A stretch of 64,000 bases of DNA from a virus (Duplodnaviria; Caudoviricetes): IMG/VR virus record IMGVR_UViG_3300022746_000016, positions 102,548-166,547 of that record, one strand, 5' to 3'. Numbering within the stretch: the first letter of the stretch is position 1; the number at the start of each line of letters is the position of its first letter. Positions 1 to 8,426 of the stretch are shown here, one piece after another. Position numbers and translations under genes: made by a program. Below the pieces are notes generated by a model. It made no database searches, was not told where the DNA came from, and saw only the letters and a list, made by a program, of their open reading frames with translations.

Positions 1-546
1 ATCATAATCGTCAAGCATGAGAGAAGTAGGCTCAATGTCAATAGCAGCAGTGTGTTTAAGATGCTGCATATAGAACCAAGTAGAATAACGCCCAAACTTG
101 TGAAGGTTTGTCTTAAGTACTCCCCAAAGTACATCAAAGTTTTGCTTAGAGCTACCCACATAGAACGATTCGAGTTTTTCACGTTGTGATCCATTTCCAA
201 TAAATTTCTGATATGATTCGAACATCACAGGTAGATGTCCCTTGTTCCACTTAGTGTCTGTCTGATAACGGAGACGTTTGTAGTTCTTAGAATTCCAGTC
301 AGTGATACGTCCAAGGTCAGCGAGTTCGTAGTCAGGGAATTCATTCTTCAACACCCATGCAGTTGGGAGTTGATACGTGTTTCCATATAGCCATGCAAGC
401 CAGATGCGTTCTTCATCGTTATGCTCATAGCGATCATTGAGATAGTTTGTAGCCCATACAGCTGGGTCACAATCATTATACTGTAATGACCAAGCATACC
501 AACGGATGAACGCTTCACGTCGGTTTTCTTTTAAGCGATAATCCAT
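1..546 (-). CDS. aGPT-PPlase clade 2 / amino acid:DNA transferase (AADT)-like protein, runs off the window edge
   Basis: Not in the ORF track. Manual translation from the ATG at 546 (TAATG overlap with the GNAT stop): MDYRLKENRREAFIRWYAWSLQYNDCDPAVWATNYL...ERIWLAWLYGNTY...RLRYQTDTKWNKG...LHKFGRYSTWFYMQHL. The WLAWLYG and FGRxSxWFY motifs resemble the HhH-glycosylase-fold aGPT-PPlase2 family. Confidence 0.7.
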   Translation of the reverse strand, partial: MDYRLKENRREAFIRWYAWSLQYNDCDPAVWATNYLNDRYEHNDEERIWLAWLYGNTYQLPTAWVLKNEFPDYELADLGRITDWNSKNYKRLRYQTDTKWNKGHLPVMFESYQKFIGNGSQREKLESFYVGSSKQNFDVLWGVLKTNLHKFGRYSTWFYMQHLKHTAAIDIEPTSLMLDDYD

Positions 547-1187
547 TATTTCAAAAAGTCCTCAAGTGATGGTTGATCCATCAGTGCTTCTCTTAACCAA
601 GCCTTACCGACTGTATCAATAGCAGCTTGTGTCTTAGCTTTCTTCTTTTCGCCCCAAGTGTATGACTCTAAACCTTCAGCAAGGAATTGAGCACGAGCCT
701 TAGCTGGTGGTAATGCTTGAAGTGGGTTTACGATTGCGTTGTCTCTGTAGGCAATTTGTTCGGCACGTGTAGCGAATAGTGGCTGGTCTGAGCGGAGTGA
801 ACCAGTCGGGTCAACTGCCCAAAACACCAAACCATTCCGATTGTGCCAGCCGACACTTGAGGGAGTACAAGAGATTTTAAGTCGTTGGACTTTTCGTTCT
901 TCGACTGCGTACTTGATCCACGCGTCCCAGCACTTGGACGCATAGCCTTTACCTTCTTGCCCTTCGAGCGTGACGATTTCGTAGAGGTTGGCATATCCAT
1001 CCCGATTAAATGTAGCAAAGATTAGAGAGACAACTTCACCGTTGACTTCGTAAGCCATTGGCAGAGACTTATCGTAGTTATGGAAACGAGTCCACAATGA
1101 GTGTGCAGCCGATAAGAACTTGGTGTTCTTACCAGCTGGACTCGATCCGATAAGCTGTTGTACTTTGGTTGAGTTTACAAGAATCAT
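546..1187 (-). CDS. GNAT-family acetyltransferase
   Basis: Acetyl-CoA motif A (VTLEGQEGKGYAS); C-terminal SLEDFLK; translationally coupled to neighbours. Confidence 0.75.
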   Translation of the reverse strand: MILVNSTKVQQLIGSSPAGKNTKFLSAAHSLWTRFHNYDKSLPMAYEVNGEVVSLIFATFNRDGYANLYEIVTLEGQEGKGYASKCWDAWIKYAVEERKVQRLKISCTPSSVGWHNRNGLVFWAVDPTGSLRSDQPLFATRAEQIAYRDNAIVNPLQALPPAKARAQFLAEGLESYTWGEKKKAKTQAAIDTVGKAWLREALMDQPSLEDFLK

Positions 1188-1870
1188 AATTGGTAATCTA
1201 CTGCACCTTCGATGTCTACTTTCTCGAGAGTATGAGACAAGTCAGCGTCGATAGTATGGTAGATGTTCATAGACAATGGAACAGTTGTATAGTTTAGGTT
1301 GGCGCGTTTAGCAACGTTAGCCGTAGAAGTAATTATACATCCGTCATCCAAAACTGTCAAATATAATGGTCGCTTACCATTGCGGTATGTGCGCAGTGTT
1401 CTGTCTGTGTGTAATTCACAAACAGCAAGGCTTGCATCTTTCCAGTGCTCTAGTGGGCTGTAGTCAGCGAGTGAACGGAGTAATAGTTCGGTGTCGTTCT
1501 TACCATCGCATGCGTATCCGTGCAAGACTTCCCAATCAGCAGGATCGTGCTGAGTAATAACACCATTATGGACAATTGATGTTGATTCATTTGCTATCGG
1601 TTGGTTATACAATAAATCGCTAGTACTATATCTGCAGTGACCAATAAGGTAAAGAGTACCATCGTCATCAACCATCTCCTCTAAATCATCTAGTTTTCTG
1701 AATTCATCCGCTGGGACTGGTTCTTTAAAAGTATGGATTACCCCACCTTTGAGGTAGGATAATCCAGTCGCATGCAGTCCACGAATACGAGATTCGTGGA
1801 ATACATTTCTAATCATATCAAAGTGGGTTGCTGTGGGTTTTTGAATCACAGCACCGATAACAGCACACAT
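1184..1870 (-). CDS. Class II (Ntn) glutamine amidotransferase domain protein
   Basis: N-terminal nucleophile M-C-A-V-I-G, then RGLHATG, GHCRYSTS, HNGVI and NDTE motifs; stand-alone, with no fused synthase domain. Confidence 0.85.
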   Translation of the reverse strand: MCAVIGAVIQKPTATHFDMIRNVFHESRIRGLHATGLSYLKGGVIHTFKEPVPADEFRKLDDLEEMVDDDGTLYLIGHCRYSTSDLLYNQPIANESTSIVHNGVITQHDPADWEVLHGYACDGKNDTELLLRSLADYSPLEHWKDASLAVCELHTDRTLRTYRNGKRPLYLTVLDDGCIITSTANVAKRANLNYTTVPLSMNIYHTIDADLSHTLEKVDIEGAVDYQL

Positions 1871-3240
1871 TAAAAGAAACTTTCTAAGTCGTTGGACTTG
1901 ATAGACTGTGGATGATACTTGTGCAATTCTTCAGTACCAAGTTTACGTTCTAGGTAATCATACCACTCTTTGTCTTCCCACATACCTTGACTCACACCAT
2001 TCCACAAGTGACGAGCAGAGCCATCTTCATTCTTATGACCTGGATGTTCTTTATCAAGACGACGAGATTCAACATATTCATAACGACAATCTTCGTATGC
2101 CTTAGAACCTAACTCAAGCATCTTCTCACGGAAATAGCATACCAAAGAAATACGCTCGGCAGATTCGTCTTCAAGAACAATCGGAGTATTTCCATGCATA
2201 ACTTCGTGGTTGTTGATCAAGAGTAAGTCACCTGGACGCACGTTCACAGCAACACGATACTCAGGAGCGATCAAATATCCACCAGAGTATTTACCATTGT
2301 TGGAAAGAACCAACAGGTTAGATAAACCAGTCTGCAAGTCACCAGCATCGTAGTGAGCAGCAGTTCTGAATGTCTTGTTCACAGTGATTGTAGTGAATGG
2401 AGTCCCTGGAACTAAGAAGCCTTGATCAATTTTCTTGGCAGCTTCCATCTGGTTGTTGTAACGCCATGGGAGCAAGTCCTTGAAACCTTTAGCAAGAGTC
2501 TGTAGGAATGGGAATGCCATCGCAAACTTTTCTGGTTCACGTTGAGTGTAAGATGTTGCACGACCATAAGGGATTCGTGGATAACGATCGAACCAACCAG
2601 CGATACCAGAGAACACACCATTGGCGTAAGTAGTGGAACACACATACTTCTTAACGATTCGATCTGCTTCTGCTTTCATCTCATCATTTGAGAGTTTCTT
2701 AGTTGCATCAACCCAAGTTTCGAAGTCGAAGCCATCTTTCTTAACTGCTTGGATACCCCAAACGTTGTTACGTGTAGATGGTTGTTCTTTCTTACCTTTG
2801 TGCGATGCACGGATCTCTTCAATTGGATCTTCACCAAACAAGTTGGCAGATGGATTAGAGAAATAGTCGATGACATCGTACTCGTACTCAGTAACCCACT
2901 CACGATTACCTAGCTTCTCGCCACGTGGACCAGCAGCCATACCACGGTTCTGTGTCTCTACTGCAGCTTCACGCAGACCAGCATAAGCTGCGTCTTGTTG
3001 TTCTTTACTGAAGTAGTTCTTACGGAACTTAAATGCGATGCGCAGTTCGTCAGTACCCTTGTCACAAGATGAGCAGTCTCTTCCAGTACCACACTCAGCT
3101 TGAGTTGCAATGTCACAGTTAGCTGGCATATAAACGTCAGCGTCTTCATCAACCAAAATGTCGTAATGTGATTCATCTAGGAATTGACCCTCAAGATGAG
3201 CGCAGTCATATTTTCTTTCTGCTACAATTACTTTAACCAT
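1870..3240 (-). CDS. TET/JBP-like 2OG-Fe(II) dioxygenase (nucleic-acid base oxidase)
   Basis: FTTITVNKTFRTAAHYDAGD (HxD), VMHGNTPI (distal His), RISLVCYFRE (2OG-binding Arg). Start set at MVKV (3240) behind a GGAG RBS. Confidence 0.8.
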   Translation of the reverse strand: MVKVIVAERKYDCAHLEGQFLDESHYDILVDEDADVYMPANCDIATQAECGTGRDCSSCDKGTDELRIAFKFRKNYFSKEQQDAAYAGLREAAVETQNRGMAAGPRGEKLGNREWVTEYEYDVIDYFSNPSANLFGEDPIEEIRASHKGKKEQPSTRNNVWGIQAVKKDGFDFETWVDATKKLSNDEMKAEADRIVKKYVCSTTYANGVFSGIAGWFDRYPRIPYGRATSYTQREPEKFAMAFPFLQTLAKGFKDLLPWRYNNQMEAAKKIDQGFLVPGTPFTTITVNKTFRTAAHYDAGDLQTGLSNLLVLSNNGKYSGGYLIAPEYRVAVNVRPGDLLLINNHEVMHGNTPIVLEDESAERISLVCYFREKMLELGSKAYEDCRYEYVESRRLDKEHPGHKNEDGSARHLWNGVSQGMWEDKEWYDYLERKLGTEELHKYHPQSIKSNDLESFF

Positions 3241-3251
3241 TTCTCTTCTCC

Positions 3252-4646
3252 TTAAAATTTCCAACCGTCAAAACTCTCAGCCTTAGCACGTTGACCAAAA
3301 TCACTCTTATCAAACATCGGAACATCATCCTTCTTATGACCAGCGTCCATCAAACCTTCTTGTGCGGATGCTTCCACATCGTAAAGTTTCATCTTAGCTC
3401 GATCAACTCCGATAACAAATCGTTTGTAAAAACCTGGATCGTTGTAACGATTCTTGAGTTGTTTAACGATAATCTGATTCAACTGCTCTAATTCTTCATT
3501 ACTTACCAACGCAAACATAAAGTCAGCAGTGGCAGGTAGACCGAAAGATTCTGAGGTATCTTCCAGCCCTGGATCGCTGTTTGTATAACCTGAACGAGTA
3601 GTCTGAGTAGCCGATACGATCGGTACGTTATACTCAACTGCAAGACCACGTAACTCTTCAGCAATTGCCTTAATATATGTATAAGAGTTAACTGAGCCAC
3701 CTTGCTTCATTCGTTGAGAAGCACAGATGTTCAAATAGTCAATCATAATGATATCGGGTTTAAACTCACGCTTCAACTTTAACTCTTCCAACAAGGCTCT
3801 GAAGTGTCCAGCATGGGCACCAGCAGTCGGGTATTCTTTGATGATCAACTTACCTTGAGTCTTCTTGGCCAACTTAGCCAGTCGTGATTCGTAGATATCC
3901 TTGTCAATCACTTTCAATTCGTCCATGGTCAGGTTAAGAAGGTTCGCGTCAATACGTTCGGCGATACGTTCTTCAGCCATCTCCATTGTTATGTATAAAA
4001 CATTTTTACCAGCACTTAGAGCACCAGCAGCAACGTGACACATAAACAGAGACTTACCAACACCAGTACCAGCTAGGACGATATTGAGAGTTTTCTTGGA
4101 CAGACCACCCTTGGTAATCTTGTTGAACATCTCAAGGTCGAAAGCAACCTTCTCTTCAACACGATGATAAAACTCATAGCGAGAGTCAGCGTCATCAAGA
4201 TAATCGTGACCAACATGATTATCAAATGAAACGGCAAGAGCATCAGAGAGAATAGATGGGATTGAATCAGTAGTGAACGTCTTGTCCCGACCTTCTTGGA
4301 TTCGGATGGAGGTAAGGATTGCATTATACACCGCCTTGTCTTTACAAAACTTCTCTGTGTTGGTAAGCAACCAGTCTTCATTGATTGGTGCATCAACAAG
4401 CGTATCAATAAACGAACTGACTTCAACAAGTTCTTTTTCGTTGATGTCAGTTCGGTTACTTACCTCGATTGCCAGAATCTCTTTTGTTACTGGCTTGTTA
4501 TACTTCGTGAAGAATTCTGAAATCTCGTTGATAATGATCGACTCTTTTCTGTCGATAAAATACTCACGCTTCAAAAACGGAATTACTTTTCGGCAGTAGT
4601 TCTCATCATAAATCAGTCTGCTCAGAATCTGTTGTTCTAATCTCAT
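3252..4646 (-). CDS. gp41: Replicative DNA helicase (T4 gp41-like)
   Basis: Walker A LAGTGVGKS, ITMEMAEE, DYLNIC, SATQTTRSG, KQLKNRY. Confidence 0.97.
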   Translation of the reverse strand: MRLEQQILSRLIYDENYCRKVIPFLKREYFIDRKESIIINEISEFFTKYNKPVTKEILAIEVSNRTDINEKELVEVSSFIDTLVDAPINEDWLLTNTEKFCKDKAVYNAILTSIRIQEGRDKTFTTDSIPSILSDALAVSFDNHVGHDYLDDADSRYEFYHRVEEKVAFDLEMFNKITKGGLSKKTLNIVLAGTGVGKSLFMCHVAAGALSAGKNVLYITMEMAEERIAERIDANLLNLTMDELKVIDKDIYESRLAKLAKKTQGKLIIKEYPTAGAHAGHFRALLEELKLKREFKPDIIMIDYLNICASQRMKQGGSVNSYTYIKAIAEELRGLAVEYNVPIVSATQTTRSGYTNSDPGLEDTSESFGLPATADFMFALVSNEELEQLNQIIVKQLKNRYNDPGFYKRFVIGVDRAKMKLYDVEASAQEGLMDAGHKKDDVPMFDKSDFGQRAKAESFDGWKF

Positions 4647-4938
4647 CAACCCCGCCTGTGTAGGAAATACTATTCTTTTGTAACTGGTCCATAATTATAA
4701 ATTGGAGCAAGTCACCGAGATAGTGCTCTAGTTCTTCTTTGATATAAGTGACACCTGCATCTTCATGCACCTCATAATCGAAATGCATTTTGCAGGTGTC
4801 ACCGTCTTCATCAAAGCTAACCGCACCGTAAGAGAAGATTATACCTGAGTATTCACCTTCTGTCAACTTGATTCGGTCTTGTTCGCCACTGCGACTCTCC
4901 AAGACTACGAATGGTGGTTTAGCTAGATGGTCACTCAT
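4606..4938 (-). CDS. gp40: gp40-like head vertex assembly chaperone
   Basis: Small acidic protein in the conserved uvsX-40-41 position. Confidence 0.6.
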   Translation of the reverse strand: MSDHLAKPPFVVLESRSGEQDRIKLTEGEYSGIIFSYGAVSFDEDGDTCKMHFDYEVHEDAGVTYIKEELEHYLGDLLQFIIMDQLQKNSISYTGGVDEIRTTDSEQTDL

Positions 4939-6001
4939 CGAATTCCAATTCCTCTAAGGCTTTGTCTAGATCGTCAGATTGAATCATATCAGATTGACCC
5001 ATAGAGTATTTGTTCTTGATGTAATCATAGAACGACTTCTGAGTCAACAGAGGCATCCAGAACTCTTTGGTATCTGTATCCTTGAGACGATACTTCTTGT
5101 CTTCAACAACACCAGTCTCTTGGTTTACTTGCGAATACCAACCATTGCTAGGCTTGATAACGTGTCCTGATTCGAGTGCAACATCAAGCAGACCAGACCA
5201 CTTGCTAATACCGCCATCGAAAGATACACTGACAGGGATTTTAGATTTTTCTTTAACATAACGACTTTTCTCTACGTTGATAATGAAGTTGTAACCGATA
5301 ACTTCAGTACCTTCTTTTTCTTGCTGACGACCAAGAATGAAGATGTTGTCGGCAGAGTAGTAAGAACCAGTACCACCACCAACGATATCCTTTGGATATA
5401 AACCAATTTCTTTGTAGGTGTGGTTCACTACAACCATCGGGATGTCTTTGATAGACAAGTGAGGTGTGACCATGCGGAATAAAGACTTCATCTGTTTAGC
5501 ACGAGACATATCGGCAACAGACTTGCCATCCAAAGCATCTTCAACTTCTTTCTTAGAAGCCAAGTTACCGATTGAGTCAATAACAATCATCAGACGATCT
5601 CCACGATCTACGTTCTGAAGCTGTTGCATGATGTCGAACTTCAATTGTTCTACGTCAGTAATAGGTGTATGGAGAACACGGTTAGTATCAATACCAAAGG
5701 AATCAAAGTAAGACTGTGGAGTACCGAATTCAGAGTCATAGAACAACAGAGCAGCGTCTGGATATTTGTCAAGGTAAGACTTGGCCATCAGCAAACTGAA
5801 TGCGGTCTTAAAGTGTTTAGATGGACCAGCCCACATTGTAAGCCCTGGAGTTAGACCACCATCAAGACGACCAGATAAGGCAACGTTGATGATTGGAATA
5901 GAAGTAGGAATCATATCCTTCTTAGTGAAGAACTTAGATACGTTAAGGACTGCAGAGTCCTTAATCGTAGTGTTCTTCTTGATTTTATCAAGAATGCTCA
6001 T
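4931..6001 (-). CDS. uvsX: RecA-like recombinase UvsX
   Basis: AGPSKHFKT, FYDSEFG, IDSIGNLAS, GGGTG. Confidence 0.97.
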   Translation of the reverse strand: MSILDKIKKNTTIKDSAVLNVSKFFTKKDMIPTSIPIINVALSGRLDGGLTPGLTMWAGPSKHFKTAFSLLMAKSYLDKYPDAALLFYDSEFGTPQSYFDSFGIDTNRVLHTPITDVEQLKFDIMQQLQNVDRGDRLMIVIDSIGNLASKKEVEDALDGKSVADMSRAKQMKSLFRMVTPHLSIKDIPMVVVNHTYKEIGLYPKDIVGGGTGSYYSADNIFILGRQQEKEGTEVIGYNFIINVEKSRYVKEKSKIPVSVSFDGGISKWSGLLDVALESGHVIKPSNGWYSQVNQETGVVEDKKYRLKDTDTKEFWMPLLTQKSFYDYIKNKYSMGQSDMIQSDDLDKALEELEFDE

Positions 6002-6009
6002 TATTATCC

Positions 6010-6393
6010 TTACAGAGATTTATACAAGGCAGATTGTGCCACGAATTGTTGCTTCCAACCCCACTCGTCGAGAACCAACTGATTAAAGATGTGTTCTTCG
6101 ACTTCGATGATTTCTTCAACCGATAACTCAAGCATACGAATCGCTCGGCTGTAGTTGTCAGCGTAATTCTGTGGGCTTTGTGGAAGATTTTTAATCTTAC
6201 GAATCTGTTCTAATTCGCCAGTGTTGGCCAACTTCAGATTCGTTTTAGCAAGTTTCACAACTGCGAGTTTGTAATCTGCTACAGCTTCATCATAATCAGC
6301 CACATGCTTGGTGGCATTTTCTTTCACGATCTTGAGCAACTCAAGACGATTCATCTTTACACTATTCATAACATTCCTTAATGGGTCACGCAT
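6010..6393 (-). CDS. Hypothetical protein
   Basis: 127-aa ORF packed in the operon with normal codon usage. Confidence 0.7.
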   Translation of the reverse strand: MRDPLRNVMNSVKMNRLELLKIVKENATKHVADYDEAVADYKLAVVKLAKTNLKLANTGELEQIRKIKNLPQSPQNYADNYSRAIRMLELSVEEIIEVEEHIFNQLVLDEWGWKQQFVAQSALYKSL

Positions 6394-6642
6394 TTATTTC
6401 AACCATTCCAATAGTTGGGCTTCATTCATCAAACCTACATGGCGTTTGATTTCATTCTCTTGGTCATCAACTAAAATCATAGTTGGTACAGAACGAACTT
6501 TGAACTCTTGAGAAAGCATAATGTTCTCGTCAATGTTCACGTCTTCGATAGGAATTGTAATCTTATCGGCTGCGCCTTTAACAACCATACTGAGTCCTTT
6601 ACATGGACCACACCATTCGGCATAAAATTTAAAAACTTTCAT
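6394..6642 (-). CDS. Thioredoxin
   Basis: WCGPC active site and cis-Pro motif SVPT. Confidence 0.93.
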   Translation of the reverse strand: MKVFKFYAEWCGPCKGLSMVVKGAADKITIPIEDVNIDENIMLSQEFKVRSVPTMILVDDQENEIKRHVGLMNEAQLLEWLK

Positions 6643-6662
6643 AACTTATCTCCTAAAAATAT

Positions 6663-6691
6663 ATTATACACTATCACCGTATGCAAGGCAA
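6663..6691 (-). promoter_or_regulatory. Sigma70-like promoter for the thioredoxin-uvsX-41-modification operon
   Basis: TTGCCT-17 bp-TATAAT on the minus strand. Confidence 0.7.
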
Positions 6692-7270
6692 TTATAATTC
6701 GTAACCAAACTGTTCAAAATCTTTCTTGTAGTAAAGACGAACCATATCTCTAGTCTCATCATCCCATTCAACCTTTTGTTTCGGATGGGAGTTGACTGTT
6801 TGTAACTTAACACCAAGACGACTTTCCAGAGGCTCCAAGTTTTCATACTTGAATATCTCAATCGGATAATCGCAGTCAATGAACATACTCTGAGTTCGGC
6901 TGATGCTGTCTGTAGAATTCTTAGTTCGATTAAACAGCACGTACTTTAACCATGGCTTGAAATCAAAATTCATATATGCCACGTAGTCTTGGTAGTCAGC
7001 TTTCTTCTGTTGTAAAGAATATGTATCATAGTAATCTTTGTACATAATCCTAGAGTAAGAAAAGATAGACTCGACTCTGTCGTATGGGTTTCTTGCAATA
7101 CAAAAAGAGAAGTCGGGTTTATACTTATGATACTCGCAACGATTAACCAAAGTAGATAAGAAATGGTGATTGTTCATCCACTTCTGATAGTTGATGTCTG
7201 GACTATCAATCATAGCATGGCGGACAGCAGAGCCAGCATTCTTAGGTATATGTAAAAATAGAACGTTCAT
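6692..7270 (-). CDS. Sulfotransferase (Sulfotransfer_2 / carbohydrate sulfotransferase-like)
   Basis: 5'-PSB motif FLHIPKNAGSA, 3'-PB motif RNPYDRVES, and C-terminal YKKDFEQFGY. Confidence 0.85.
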   Translation of the reverse strand: MNVLFLHIPKNAGSAVRHAMIDSPDINYQKWMNNHHFLSTLVNRCEYHKYKPDFSFCIARNPYDRVESIFSYSRIMYKDYYDTYSLQQKKADYQDYVAYMNFDFKPWLKYVLFNRTKNSTDSISRTQSMFIDCDYPIEIFKYENLEPLESRLGVKLQTVNSHPKQKVEWDDETRDMVRLYYKKDFEQFGYEL

Positions 7271-7806
7271 TTCTTATGTGGTACGTCAAATACAAAGGTT
7301 ACACGAACACAGTCGCCTATGTTCTTAGTCCCATGGGGTAGTTTATTGTTGAACCATAGCAGGGTTCCAGGTTCTACCGTAACAGATTCATCTCCCACTG
7401 TGTATATGTATCTGCCTTGGATGGACAGATGATAGCGGTCTCTAGTTTGGTAGTAACTTCCAATATCAATGTGCGTTCCAACTTCTCCACCAACTGGCAG
7501 AGATAGGAAACCACATCGACTGACTTTCTTAAAGTGTCGCTTAACGAAGCCAATGACTTCTGTGTGGTGTTGAATAGCTGGAGTTGGAATACAATACTCT
7601 GTGTCTCCAACGTACTGGTCTATATGTTCAACACCACCCATCACAAGCTGCAATACACCAGCTTGAACTTCGGGGAATCCATATGAGAGCATGGACTTAA
7701 CTCCATCTACTCTTTTCTGAACTCCCCAGTCCTCTGGGTATTTTTCTAACTGTGCCAAAATCTTTGACACATTTAAACCAGTCTTAATGATTCTAATGTT
7801 CTTCAT
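7267..7806 (-). CDS. Aspartyl/asparaginyl beta-hydroxylase-like 2OG-Fe(II) oxygenase
   Basis: HID...RYHLSI...LWFNNKLPH...RVTFVFD pattern. Confidence 0.8.
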   Translation of the reverse strand: MKNIRIIKTGLNVSKILAQLEKYPEDWGVQKRVDGVKSMLSYGFPEVQAGVLQLVMGGVEHIDQYVGDTEYCIPTPAIQHHTEVIGFVKRHFKKVSRCGFLSLPVGGEVGTHIDIGSYYQTRDRYHLSIQGRYIYTVGDESVTVEPGTLLWFNNKLPHGTKNIGDCVRVTFVFDVPHKK

Positions 7807-7841
7807 AGTAATCCAAAAAGGTTAAATTCCTATATACTTAT

Positions 7842-8426
7842 ATGAAACCATTTACCTACCTTATTAAGTGTATCCCAACTAACCAAGTTTACTATGGTGT
7901 TCGGTACTCATCAAACTGCCACCCAGACCAACTCTGGAACTCATACTTCACATCATCTAAAAGAGTTCATACTCTAATCGAAAAATATGGAGTAGAAAAC
8001 TTCCAAACTCAGATAAGAAGGACATTCTTAACTGCAGAAGAAGCGGTTAGATGGGAGACTAAAGTCTTATCTAAACTTAATGCTGCTAAGTCAGAGGTCT
8101 GGCTAAACTGTCAAAATGGAGACTACAAGTTCAAAAACAAAGGTGGATATAAACTACCAGAGTCTAAGAAAACTAATTTTAGAAAACCTAAAAGCGAGTC
8201 CCATAAACAGTCTATGAAAGATCGTTACAAAGTAAAACATAAACATTATAACGACGGTAAAAAGTCTTATTATCTTCCAGAAGATTCCCCTCTAATAACA
8301 GAGTTAAACCTAAAAGAAGGACAAGTTATAACAAAATGTCCACATTGCAGTAAAGAAGGTAAACTAAACGCAATGCTTAGATGGCACTTCAATAACTGCA
8401 AGACATCACCCGAAAAAACCCTCTAA
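7842..8426 (+). mobile_element. Free-standing Seg-like GIY-YIG homing endonuclease (antisense, overlaps the gp43 3' end)
   Basis: PFTYLI...YYGVRY...YFTSS...EEAVRWE...WLN; C-terminal CPHC...RWHFNNC; opposite strand to neighbours. Confidence 0.8.

Follow-up and report, generated by a model that had tools for sequence, protein, structure and literature searches.

A putative post-replicative thymidine-hypermodification operon of a T4-like phage, with a stand-alone glutamine amidotransferase proposed to pair with an AADT

Hypermodified thymines protect phage DNA against restriction enzymes and other nucleases. In viral contigs without a dUMP hydroxymethylase, TET_JBP genes were described beside thymidine-hypermodifying genes, and such contigs also carry glutaminotransferase and amidoligase genes of unknown function (Lee 2021, PMC8989533). 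One phage TET was shown to oxidise thymine (Burke 2021), phage T-dioxygenase activity was proven in vivo as well as in vitro, and clade C1 of these enzymes (5mYOX) was reported as 'consistently linked' with GATases (glutamine amidotransferases), with P-loop kinases and with AADTs (O'Toole 2026, PMC13229309). Here, we looked at a cluster of this type in a T4-like phage. The window that was analysed is a stretch of 64,000 nucleotides, bases 102548-166547 of the 166,547-bp IMG/VR virus record IMGVR_UViG_3300022746_000016 (CheckV completeness estimate, 96%). At its first bases it carries genes for a TET/JBP dioxygenase (hereafter TET), a GATase, a GNAT-family acyltransferase (GNAT) and the beginning of an AADT (Table 1), and the downstream extension of the cluster was examined in genome positions 90000-108000 (L002). 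From its sequence, the locus is probably, with a chance that we put at roughly 0.6, a post-replicative thymidine-hypermodification operon co-transcribed with the replication genes. An original prediction, made on the window, had supposed that such gene neighbourhoods may have been noted bioinformatically, and TET, kinase, AADT and GATase neighbourhoods are indeed found in Lee 2021 and O'Toole 2026. The cluster type is therefore already published; a joint role of GATase and AADT is a specific and testable hypothesis that is apparently unpublished. Our literature search found no role for the GATase, no GATase-AADT fusion and no T4-like long-form ParB-less arrangement (supplements may list the contig or the fusions), and in the text of O'Toole 2026 available to us the GATase is named only in one co-occurrence sentence, with no fusion mentioned.

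The clade C1 and Lee contigs resemble our locus in that a TET/JBP gene, with neither a C5-methyltransferase nor a dUMP hydroxymethylase adjoining it, stands beside kinase, AADT and GATase genes, which was read there, as we do here, as in-situ production of 5-hydroxymethyluracil (5-hmU) for thymidine hypermodification. However, the tested phage T-dioxygenases have about 290-300 amino acids, whereas TET is a 456-amino-acid long form for which no ParB-like gene was found. Moreover, the cluster here is joined to the gp41 operon of a T4-like genome, and the text of those reports leaves the GATase function unassigned. Pseudomonas phage PaMx11 has a logic in common with the one proposed here, from kinase to AADT, to an aminomethyl base and to its acetylation by a GNAT, and the end product may coincide. 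The PaMx11 genes are gp46 (AADT), gp47 (flavin adenine dinucleotide (FAD) lyase), gp48 (acetyltransferase, which acetylates 5-aminomethyl-dU) and gp49 (kinase, listed as a 5-hmdU DNA kinase) (Lee 2021, PMC8989533). In PaMx11, 5-hmU is made before replication by means of a thymidylate-synthase-like gene, in the place of which our locus has TET, and the amine is left when an added glycine is trimmed by the flavoprotein, in the place of which our locus has the GATase; unlike in PaMx11, no FAD enzyme was found among the cluster open reading frames (ORFs). The kinases of the two systems show a weak similarity suggestive of homology (22% identity, expect value (E) 2e-4, in a single comparison). Between the GNATs there is no sequence relationship (E 5.4), and the alignment of the AADTs is marginal (E 0.37).

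Among biochemically characterised AADTs, the closest is the serine:DNA transferase gp247 of Salmonella phage ViI, to which our AADT is 26% identical over 313 residues (E 5e-24), with the Glu/Cys motifs aligned. ViI differs by a serine O-linkage and a pyridoxal phosphate decarboxylase, and no GATase was seen in the 32-kb stretch examined. The cultured T4-like Caulobacter phage Cr30 has a long-form TET (48% identical to ours), an unannotated AADT (32%, E 2.4e-54) and a kinase (38%) at about 51.8-60.7 kb of KF301602.1 (L004), and over the 19 kb examined neither the GATase nor the GNAT has a homologue. Nearby in Cr30 are a weak match to a TET-associated glycosyltransferase (E 8.5e-4) and a gene annotated as inositol-1-phosphate synthase; our search of the literature found nothing on Cr30 DNA modification. 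Finally, base J of kinetoplastids (JBP1/2 and a glucosyltransferase) is made as proposed here, post-replicatively from T to 5-hmU and then by decoration. There the decoration is glycosylation, whereas here it would be phosphorylation and amination, and the nearer analogue of base J is given by three glycosyltransferase-variant loci described below.

The four genes of the window lie directly downstream of gp41 and are translationally coupled, as originally described. TET and GATase overlap as TAATG, GATase and GNAT as ATGA, and GNAT and AADT as TAATG. The TAA stop of gp41 is followed by GGAG and then by an ATG at window position 3240, which places the TET start there and gives the protein the length found in most homologues; the end coordinate previously given for the cluster is the same. 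All four families then claimed (TET/JBP, GATase, GNAT and AADT-like) were recovered above the Pfam curated cut-offs, and in PHROGs TET falls into phrog_24024 (E 1.5e-163, function unknown) and AADT into phrog_3271. What did not stand is the extent of a four-gene cluster, since the AADT is cut by the window edge and the operon continues with o154, a kinase and o231. Beyond the window, AADT and o154 overlap as ATGA, o154 overlaps the kinase gene, and a 21-nt gap precedes o231. The kinase, of family PF18751, is of the P-loop kind that had been predicted to lie beyond base 1.

This gene arrangement is not due to chance. IMG/VR holds 354 relatives of TET, of which the best 80 (70-94% identity) were kept, and the order is conserved across these 80. 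A gene was counted as present when tblastn gave E <= 1e-5 with at least 50% of the query covered. gp41 was found upstream of TET in all 67 related loci having at least 1.5 kb of upstream sequence. Where the downstream sequence reached 2.6 kb or more (46 loci), GATase and AADT are kept in 43, with GNAT as well in 35, and 3 have none of these genes, so that the co-occurrence supposed for related genomes was recovered. GATase, AADT and kinase are together in 27 of the 29 loci with at least 5.5 kb downstream: the full set of GATase, GNAT, AADT, kinase and o231 is present in 22, only GNAT is absent in 4, GNAT and o231 are absent in 1, and the last 2 have only o231. Whatever tailoring genes lie between them, the GATase is always found with AADT and kinase.

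TET has the residues expected of its family. H296, D298, H349 and R363 are invariant across 36 sequences of 32-81% identity; from an alignment with TET2, we take the first three to be the HxD...H iron triad and R363 to be the 2-oxoglutarate arginine. With the AlphaFold2 (AF2) model of TET (predicted local distance difference test (pLDDT) 89.7), the best PDB folds given by Foldseek were human TET2 (7ne6_A, E 1.7e-10, template modelling (TM) scores 0.46/0.49), Coprinopsis CcTet and Naegleria Tet1 (NgTet1, E 5.2e-10). TET has 3135 homologues at E <= 1e-5, and a scan of 1.84 billion representatives gave 1659 relatives at E <= 0.001 in two tiers. The first tier consists of about two dozen full-length clusters of 430-470 amino acids with 40-60% identity to TET, and the second of many proteins of about 300 amino acids aligning only with TET residues ~200-390, so that TET is a long form, extended at both its N and its C terminus. 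Among cultured phages, this form occurs in Cr30, Stenotrophomonas phage DLP6 and phage C48C1, and, more distantly, in Synechococcus phage S-CBWM1. The TET homologues of Cr30, DLP6, S-CBWM1 and HTVC112P are labelled 'SNF2 DNA repair protein' (with 'putative' in Cr30), which looks like an annotation carried over from JBP2; the C48C1 copy is a hypothetical protein.

To define the base on which TET acts, we relied on genome content. A six-frame family search of the 96%-complete genome gave no match at E <= 1 to the DNA C5-methyltransferases (PF00145) or to the thymidylate-synthase fold of dUMP/dCMP hydroxymethylases (PF00303), and it detected ThyX (E 2.6e-43). Since there is no C5-methyltransferase and no ThyA-like hydroxymethylase, and ThyX is present, thymine in DNA is the likely TET substrate. 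By this content the phage makes dTMP, and no means of forming 5mC or the nucleotides 5-hmdU and 5-hmdC was seen. The original prediction had considered post-replicative hmU or hmC; of the two, hmU made from T is favoured and hmC is not. Judged from these sequences, it is very probable that the cluster hypermodifies T starting from 5-hmU made by TET.

The GATase consists of a glutaminase domain only, without an acceptor (synthase) domain on the same chain. It starts with Met-Cys, and C2, R80 (in HCRYST), N102-G103 (in HNG) and D126 (in ND-E) are invariant in 14 of 14 sequences (48-81% identity). Its profile aligns with the isolated glutaminase domain of E. coli GlmS (PDB 1xff, E 0.0056), with C2 on residue 1 and the others on the AHTRWAT, VVHNG and ETDTE stretches; a single-sequence search of solved structures gave no match at E <= 0.01. 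Presumably, C2, R80, N102-G103 and D126 correspond to Cys1, Arg73, Asn98-Gly99 and Asp123 of GlmS. In GlmS and PurF, the Cys is the nucleophile, Asn-Gly forms the oxyanion hole, and Arg and Asp bind the alpha-carboxylate and alpha-amino groups of glutamine. The conservation of these glutamine-site residues makes the GATase look like a true glutaminase for free glutamine, in need of an acceptor partner. In classical class II amidotransferases, the N-terminal glutaminase passes NH3 to a C-terminal domain. GlmS, PurF and AsnB have the N-terminal Cys and the Arg/Asn-Gly/Asp glutamine site in common with our GATase and carry the glutaminase and then the acceptor domain on one chain, whereas here the two are separate polypeptides and the proposed acceptor domain is a DNA-base transferase working on polymeric DNA.

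The AADT is the candidate for this partner. A predicted GATase-AADT complex scored 0.93 in 3 of 3 runs versus 0.00 for the best of 3 controls; among solved complexes 58 of 80 attain the mark set for this score, and among mismatched pairs 2 of 110, counts that are only rough here, custom paired alignments having been used. The prediction supports binding of the two proteins within a limit that counts against a firmer reading, namely that the score is a model confidence. As no solved complex of this type is known to us, the 0.93 score is unlikely to stem from memorised structures. At least 98% of the contacts are common to the runs, with a pLDDT of 94 for the partner. The predicted interface comprises GATase residues 1, 28-33, 81-83, 103-104, 106-109, 145-147, 165-168, 182-185 and 224-228, that is, the face bearing the catalytic loops, and AADT residues 38-46, 67-80, 120 and 279-285. 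On the AADT side, RYEHNDE is a stretch that does not vary among GATase-linked AADTs; Cr30, VioletZ, ViI and Cygsa01, around whose AADTs no GATase was found in the stretch examined, have AADTs that differ in it.

Natural fusions of the two proteins were also found. A search for longer AADT relatives gave P0276, a protein of 608 amino acids with GATase_6 (74-182) followed by ADDT (303-519). Its N-terminal part is 37% identical to our GATase (E 2e-22) and also starts with Met-Cys; its C-terminal part is 32% identical to our AADT (E 2e-51) and keeps the Cys/Glu motif. Five IMG/VR loci (L096-L100), from 4 distinct phages, carry uninterrupted fusion ORFs of about 625 amino acids that are 43-64% identical to P0276, the fusion proteins as a whole measuring 608-626 amino acids. 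These loci have no TET. HMUDK_HMUD1 or HMUDK_hel kinases are present in 3 of the 4 distinct loci, thymidylate-synthase-like genes in 2, and a GNAT at most 1.5 kb away in 2 (L096, E 7e-9; L097, a weak match of 21.3 bits against a cut-off of 20.7). Upstream of the fusion of L099 lies a SNF2-family helicase. As the fusions are in phages with thymidylate-synthase-like genes in place of a TET and the separate pair is behind TET, the GATase-AADT pair appears to be a module working behind either source of 5-hmU. This unit is repeatedly accompanied by an acyltransferase.

Altogether, co-travel in related loci, the predicted complex and the natural fusions argue for the pairing of GATase and AADT. We lean, if only slightly, towards the two proteins installing NH3 together. 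That they make up a glutamine-dependent amidotransferase acting on a base of polymeric DNA, and converting 5-phosphomethyl-dU directly to 5-aminomethyl-dU, is possible at a little under even odds. The supply of NH3 by the synthase-less GATase, which had been suggested for the window, gains support from the free-glutamine residues, the predicted complex and the fusions. To our knowledge, no amidotransferase acting on DNA has been described, and a literature search gave none either.

E241 and C245 of the AADT are invariant in 16 sequences and align with the Glu/Cys of 8 other AADTs, including those of ViI (gp247), Cr30, VioletZ and Cygsa01; this pair was found essential by mutation of M6 gp51 and ViI gp247 (Lee 2021, PMC8989533). 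An AADT sequence search of solved structures gave nothing meaningful. The kinase has the Walker A stretch GVPGTGKT, and its family PF18751 scores E 4e-72 in gp4 of mycobacteriophage VioletZ, beside a Tet_JBP-like gp2 and the AADT gp3. No gene of the cluster is as conserved as the GNAT, whose mean column identity over 14 sequences is 89% and whose C-terminal half is rich in Lys; tblastn against cultured phages gave no match for it. By analogy, it is proposed to be the N-acylase of the aminomethyl base. This acylation, part of the original interpretation, is consistent with the GNATs, unrelated to ours, beside 2 of the 4 distinct fusion loci and with an amidoligase found in the GNAT slot of variant loci.

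These variants (L010, L015, L040, L063, L039, L058 and L064 were examined) define the slot behind TET as a site where modules of the radical-SAM, amidoligase, ParB-like and glycosyltransferase types are exchanged. In some, radical-SAM genes are inserted between AADT and kinase (one or two; one such gene has a B12-binding domain). GNAT-less variants have Amidoligase_2 in the GNAT slot together with a low-molecular-weight phosphatase, and one of them (L040) has in addition another GNAT and a 431-amino-acid ParB_N protein. The three loci without GATase, AADT and kinase have a cytidylyltransferase and a GT1 glycosyltransferase directly behind TET, and in S-CBWM1 sugar-nucleotide genes adjoin TET. 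Decoration modules swapped as blocks behind a constant TET are expected if TET makes a common 5-hydroxymethyl precursor. Moreover, since GNATs and amidoligases both form amides on a free amine, Amidoligase_2 in the GNAT slot supports an amine intermediate.

The pathway that we propose would run in four steps. TET, an Fe/2-oxoglutarate enzyme by family, fold and genome context, would hydroxylate thymine in phage DNA to 5-hmU, and the P-loop kinase, by homology, would use ATP to form 5-phosphomethyl-dU. GATase and AADT would then act as one two-subunit class II amidotransferase. In it, GATase would hydrolyse free glutamine, the Cys/Glu site of AADT (E241/C245) would expel the phosphate to leave an exocyclic methylene, following the mechanism of Lee 2021 (PMC8989533), and the glutamine-derived NH3 would attack it to give 5-aminomethyl-dU. 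Finally, GNAT would acylate the primary amine, most simply with acetyl-CoA, by analogy with PaMx11 gp48. The end base would equal the 5-acetylaminomethyl-dU of PaMx11, reached by another route. This complete product is tentative, and we hold it to be rather more probably wrong in some step than right in all. Overall, the original observation is confirmed and its interpretation supported by the sequences, and the product is one that we infer.

Several points weigh against this pathway. For TET, its length sets it apart from the tested phage T-dioxygenases, the subclass linked to GATase, kinase and AADT needed a ParB-like activator, and in E. coli some of the clade C1 enzymes lacking ParB showed no activity when assayed (O'Toole 2026, PMC13229309), so that the long form could behave differently. 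ParB_N (PF02195) gave no genome match at E <= 10, no relative of the ParB_N protein of L040 or of VioletZ gp1 was found (best E 0.017 over 29 amino acids), and nothing ParB-like in the PDB matched the o231 model. In VioletZ, the gene upstream of TET (gp1) is itself without a Pfam match, so that the absence of an activator as judged by sequence is weak evidence. The kinase belongs to PF18751 and not to HMUD1/HMUD2, the families of most tested kinases; ViI gp243 is PF18747. For the GNAT, the best profile match in the PDB has an E of 0.79. As to co-transcription, three RNA-labelled freshwater metatranscriptome libraries hold window positions 1-8000 letter for letter in contigs of 16.8-34.7 kb; these contigs may come from DNA carry-over or from the record's own source, and they show that the stretch is present, not that it is transcribed or that its bases are modified.

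The AADT step is where the best surviving alternative departs from ours. In it, the AADT would transfer a whole amino acid, glutamine or glutamate, via the alpha-amine, the GATase would only tailor the product and the GNAT would cap the remaining amine. The tailoring could be deamidation of the appended glutamine, giving an SP10-like glutamyl-thymine, or NH3 supply for a later amidation of the carboxylate. All characterised AADTs take amino acids or putrescine (glycine, serine or putrescine), and SP10 DNA bears alpha-glutamylthymidine (Lee 2021, PMC8989533). Directly after the GATase, variant loci have Amidoligase_2. Its relatives in cultured phages, about 26% identical and longer, lie in amidoligase/ATP-grasp sets without AADT, and Pseudomonas phage tf and Vibrio phage BA6 have GAT-II and amidoligase pairs without AADT. 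With the GATase adjoining an amidoligase both in variants and in unrelated phages, its NH3 could feed a later amidation, and we know of no precedent for ammonia as the nucleophile of an AADT. We nevertheless consider the transfer of a whole amino acid unlikely. The invariant Arg and Asp of the GATase, by their roles in GlmS, hold free alpha-carboxylate and alpha-amino groups, so that a DNA-bound, N-alpha-alkylated glutamine would fit poorly. The fusions are ordered GATase then AADT, as in NH3-passing class II amidotransferases, and the predicted interface would bury the active-site loops of the GATase against the AADT. No Bacillus phage is among the organism names of the 124 records with a GATase relative, so the glutamyl transfer of SP10 seems not to need a GATase. 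Lastly, loci without amidoligase still have the GATase together with AADT and kinase.

A different possibility is that the cluster does not carry base modification through to its end: TET would write sparse, sequence-specific regulatory 5-hmU marks, or the downstream enzymes would have targets outside DNA, for instance RNA, a protein or a small molecule. T oxidation was indeed found partial and sequence-selective, and an epigenetic-like role was raised (O'Toole 2026, PMC13229309); in addition, the GAT-II/amidoligase/ATP-grasp sets of other phages have no known link to DNA. However, DNA thymidine hypermodification is so far the only process to which the AADT and kinase families have been linked, translational coupling joins the genes to TET and the replication genes, and the module is replaced en bloc by a glycosyltransferase module behind the same TET, which makes such roles improbable. 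Least probable is that TET acts on 5-methylcytosine (5mC) and the cluster hypermodifies cytosine via 5-hmC: clade A/B phage TETs do oxidise 5mC, a kinase acting on TET-made 5-hmC has been suggested for some contigs, and our best solved-structure matches are 5mC dioxygenases (in a Foldseek list with no JBP oxygenase domain for comparison), but, besides the genome content given above, only 6% of 5mYOX pathways co-occur with a C5-methyltransferase, kinase/AADT/GATase clusters belong to the T-dioxygenase clade (O'Toole 2026, PMC13229309), and the tested AADTs and 5-HMUDKs act on uracil derivatives (Lee 2021, PMC8989533).

Two genes of the operon are without a part in the proposed pathway. o154 gave no Pfam, PHROG or Atlas match; only its C-terminal half is conserved (19 sequences), and it is absent from some otherwise complete loci. 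In o231, H117-E118-x-x-H121 is invariant, as are E159, H165 and C166. The gene comes after the kinase in 34 related loci, and even glycosyltransferase-type variants keep it behind TET. Its AF2 model (pLDDT 89.9) has no PDB match below E 0.07, and the best E of its profile against solved structures is 0.16. An assignment of o231 as a SprT-like zincin was considered and is not established (Pfam SprT-like, E 0.053; an Atlas lead of 0.84, otherwise viral hypothetical clusters). Downstream of the cluster, on the minus strand (genome 93433-100264, L002:3434-10265), lie a Lys-rich ORF of 459 amino acids without family (o459), a cytidylyltransferase-like protein of 292 amino acids, a Dps/ferritin-like protein, a DUF6267 protein (E 7.4e-95) and a 921-amino-acid protein with an N-terminal cytidylyltransferase-like domain; most genes of this block recur in related loci. 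The 30-nt spacer between o231 and o459 (genome 100250-100310) holds an inverted repeat, TAGTTAGT ... ACTAACTA, around CTATAAT, which may be a promoter or terminator marking the operon end. The features of the cluster and its surroundings are collected in Table 1. Among cultured phages, Methylophilales phage Melnitz has the closest gp41 (66% identity) and T4-like cyanophages come next (about 62%), and megablast of window positions 1-6000 against 50,697 phage records gave only 7 short matches, with a coverage of at most 3%.

Table 1. Position of the cluster genes and of neighbouring features (window positions, unless marked as genome or L002 positions)
Feature	Position	Strand	Match or remark
Long-form TET/JBP dioxygenase (5mYOX), 456 aa	1870-3240	minus	Tet_JBP 92.7 bits (cut-off 34.9), E 1.9e-26
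Stand-alone class II (Ntn) GATase, 228 aa	1184-1870	minus	GATase_6 37.7 bits (cut-off 27), E 2.4e-9
GNAT-family acyltransferase, 213 aa	546-1187	minus	Acetyltransf_1 27.1 bits (cut-off 20.7), E 5.6e-6, residues 33-110
AADT, N-terminal 182 residues	1-546	minus	PF18724 (ADDT) 52.5 bits (cut-off 26.2) for the part in the window
AADT, full protein, 339 aa	continues to genome 102074	minus	PF18724 74.7 bits, E 1.2e-20
o154, 154-aa ORF	genome 101613-102077 (L002:11614-12078)	minus	no family; between AADT and kinase
P-loop kinase, 201 aa	genome 101011-101616	minus	PF18751 (Ploopntkinase3) 32.0 bits (cut-off 27)
o231, HExxH protein, 231 aa	genome 100295-100990 (L002:10296-10991)	minus	after kinase
gp41-like DnaB replicative helicase	3252-4649	minus	DnaB_C E 2.1e-21; phrog_19 E 1.4e-129; first gene of the co-oriented block
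UvsX	4931-6001	minus	upstream of gp41, co-oriented; a 110-aa ORF also there
Thioredoxin	6394-6642	minus	
Sulfotransfer_2-family protein	6692-7270	minus	
Asp/Asn beta-hydroxylase-like cupin	7267-7806	minus	
SegE-like GIY-YIG endonuclease	7842-8426	plus	

In conclusion, three independent lines, namely the glutamine-site residues of the GATase, the predicted complex with its clean controls and the natural fusions, point to one reaction, which can be reconstituted with existing reagents (5-hmdU DNA, ATP and glutamine), and Cr30 is a cultured relative carrying the TET, kinase and AADT steps. If true, the reading given here would describe a route in which four enzymes, all acting after replication, turn thymine into an N-acylated aminomethyl-uracil, convergent with the product of PaMx11 and with a different source of hmU and a different amine-forming chemistry. 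With each new enzyme step, there are more tools for placing chemical groups on DNA. TET lies in T4-like gp41 operons in the 80 closest viral contigs, and freshwater is the label of the sequencing runs in which most of the stretch is found. Given the large TET family, these operons and these runs, post-replicative T modification may be common in such phages, and this would matter for sequencing, for restriction-based methods and for studies of host defence.

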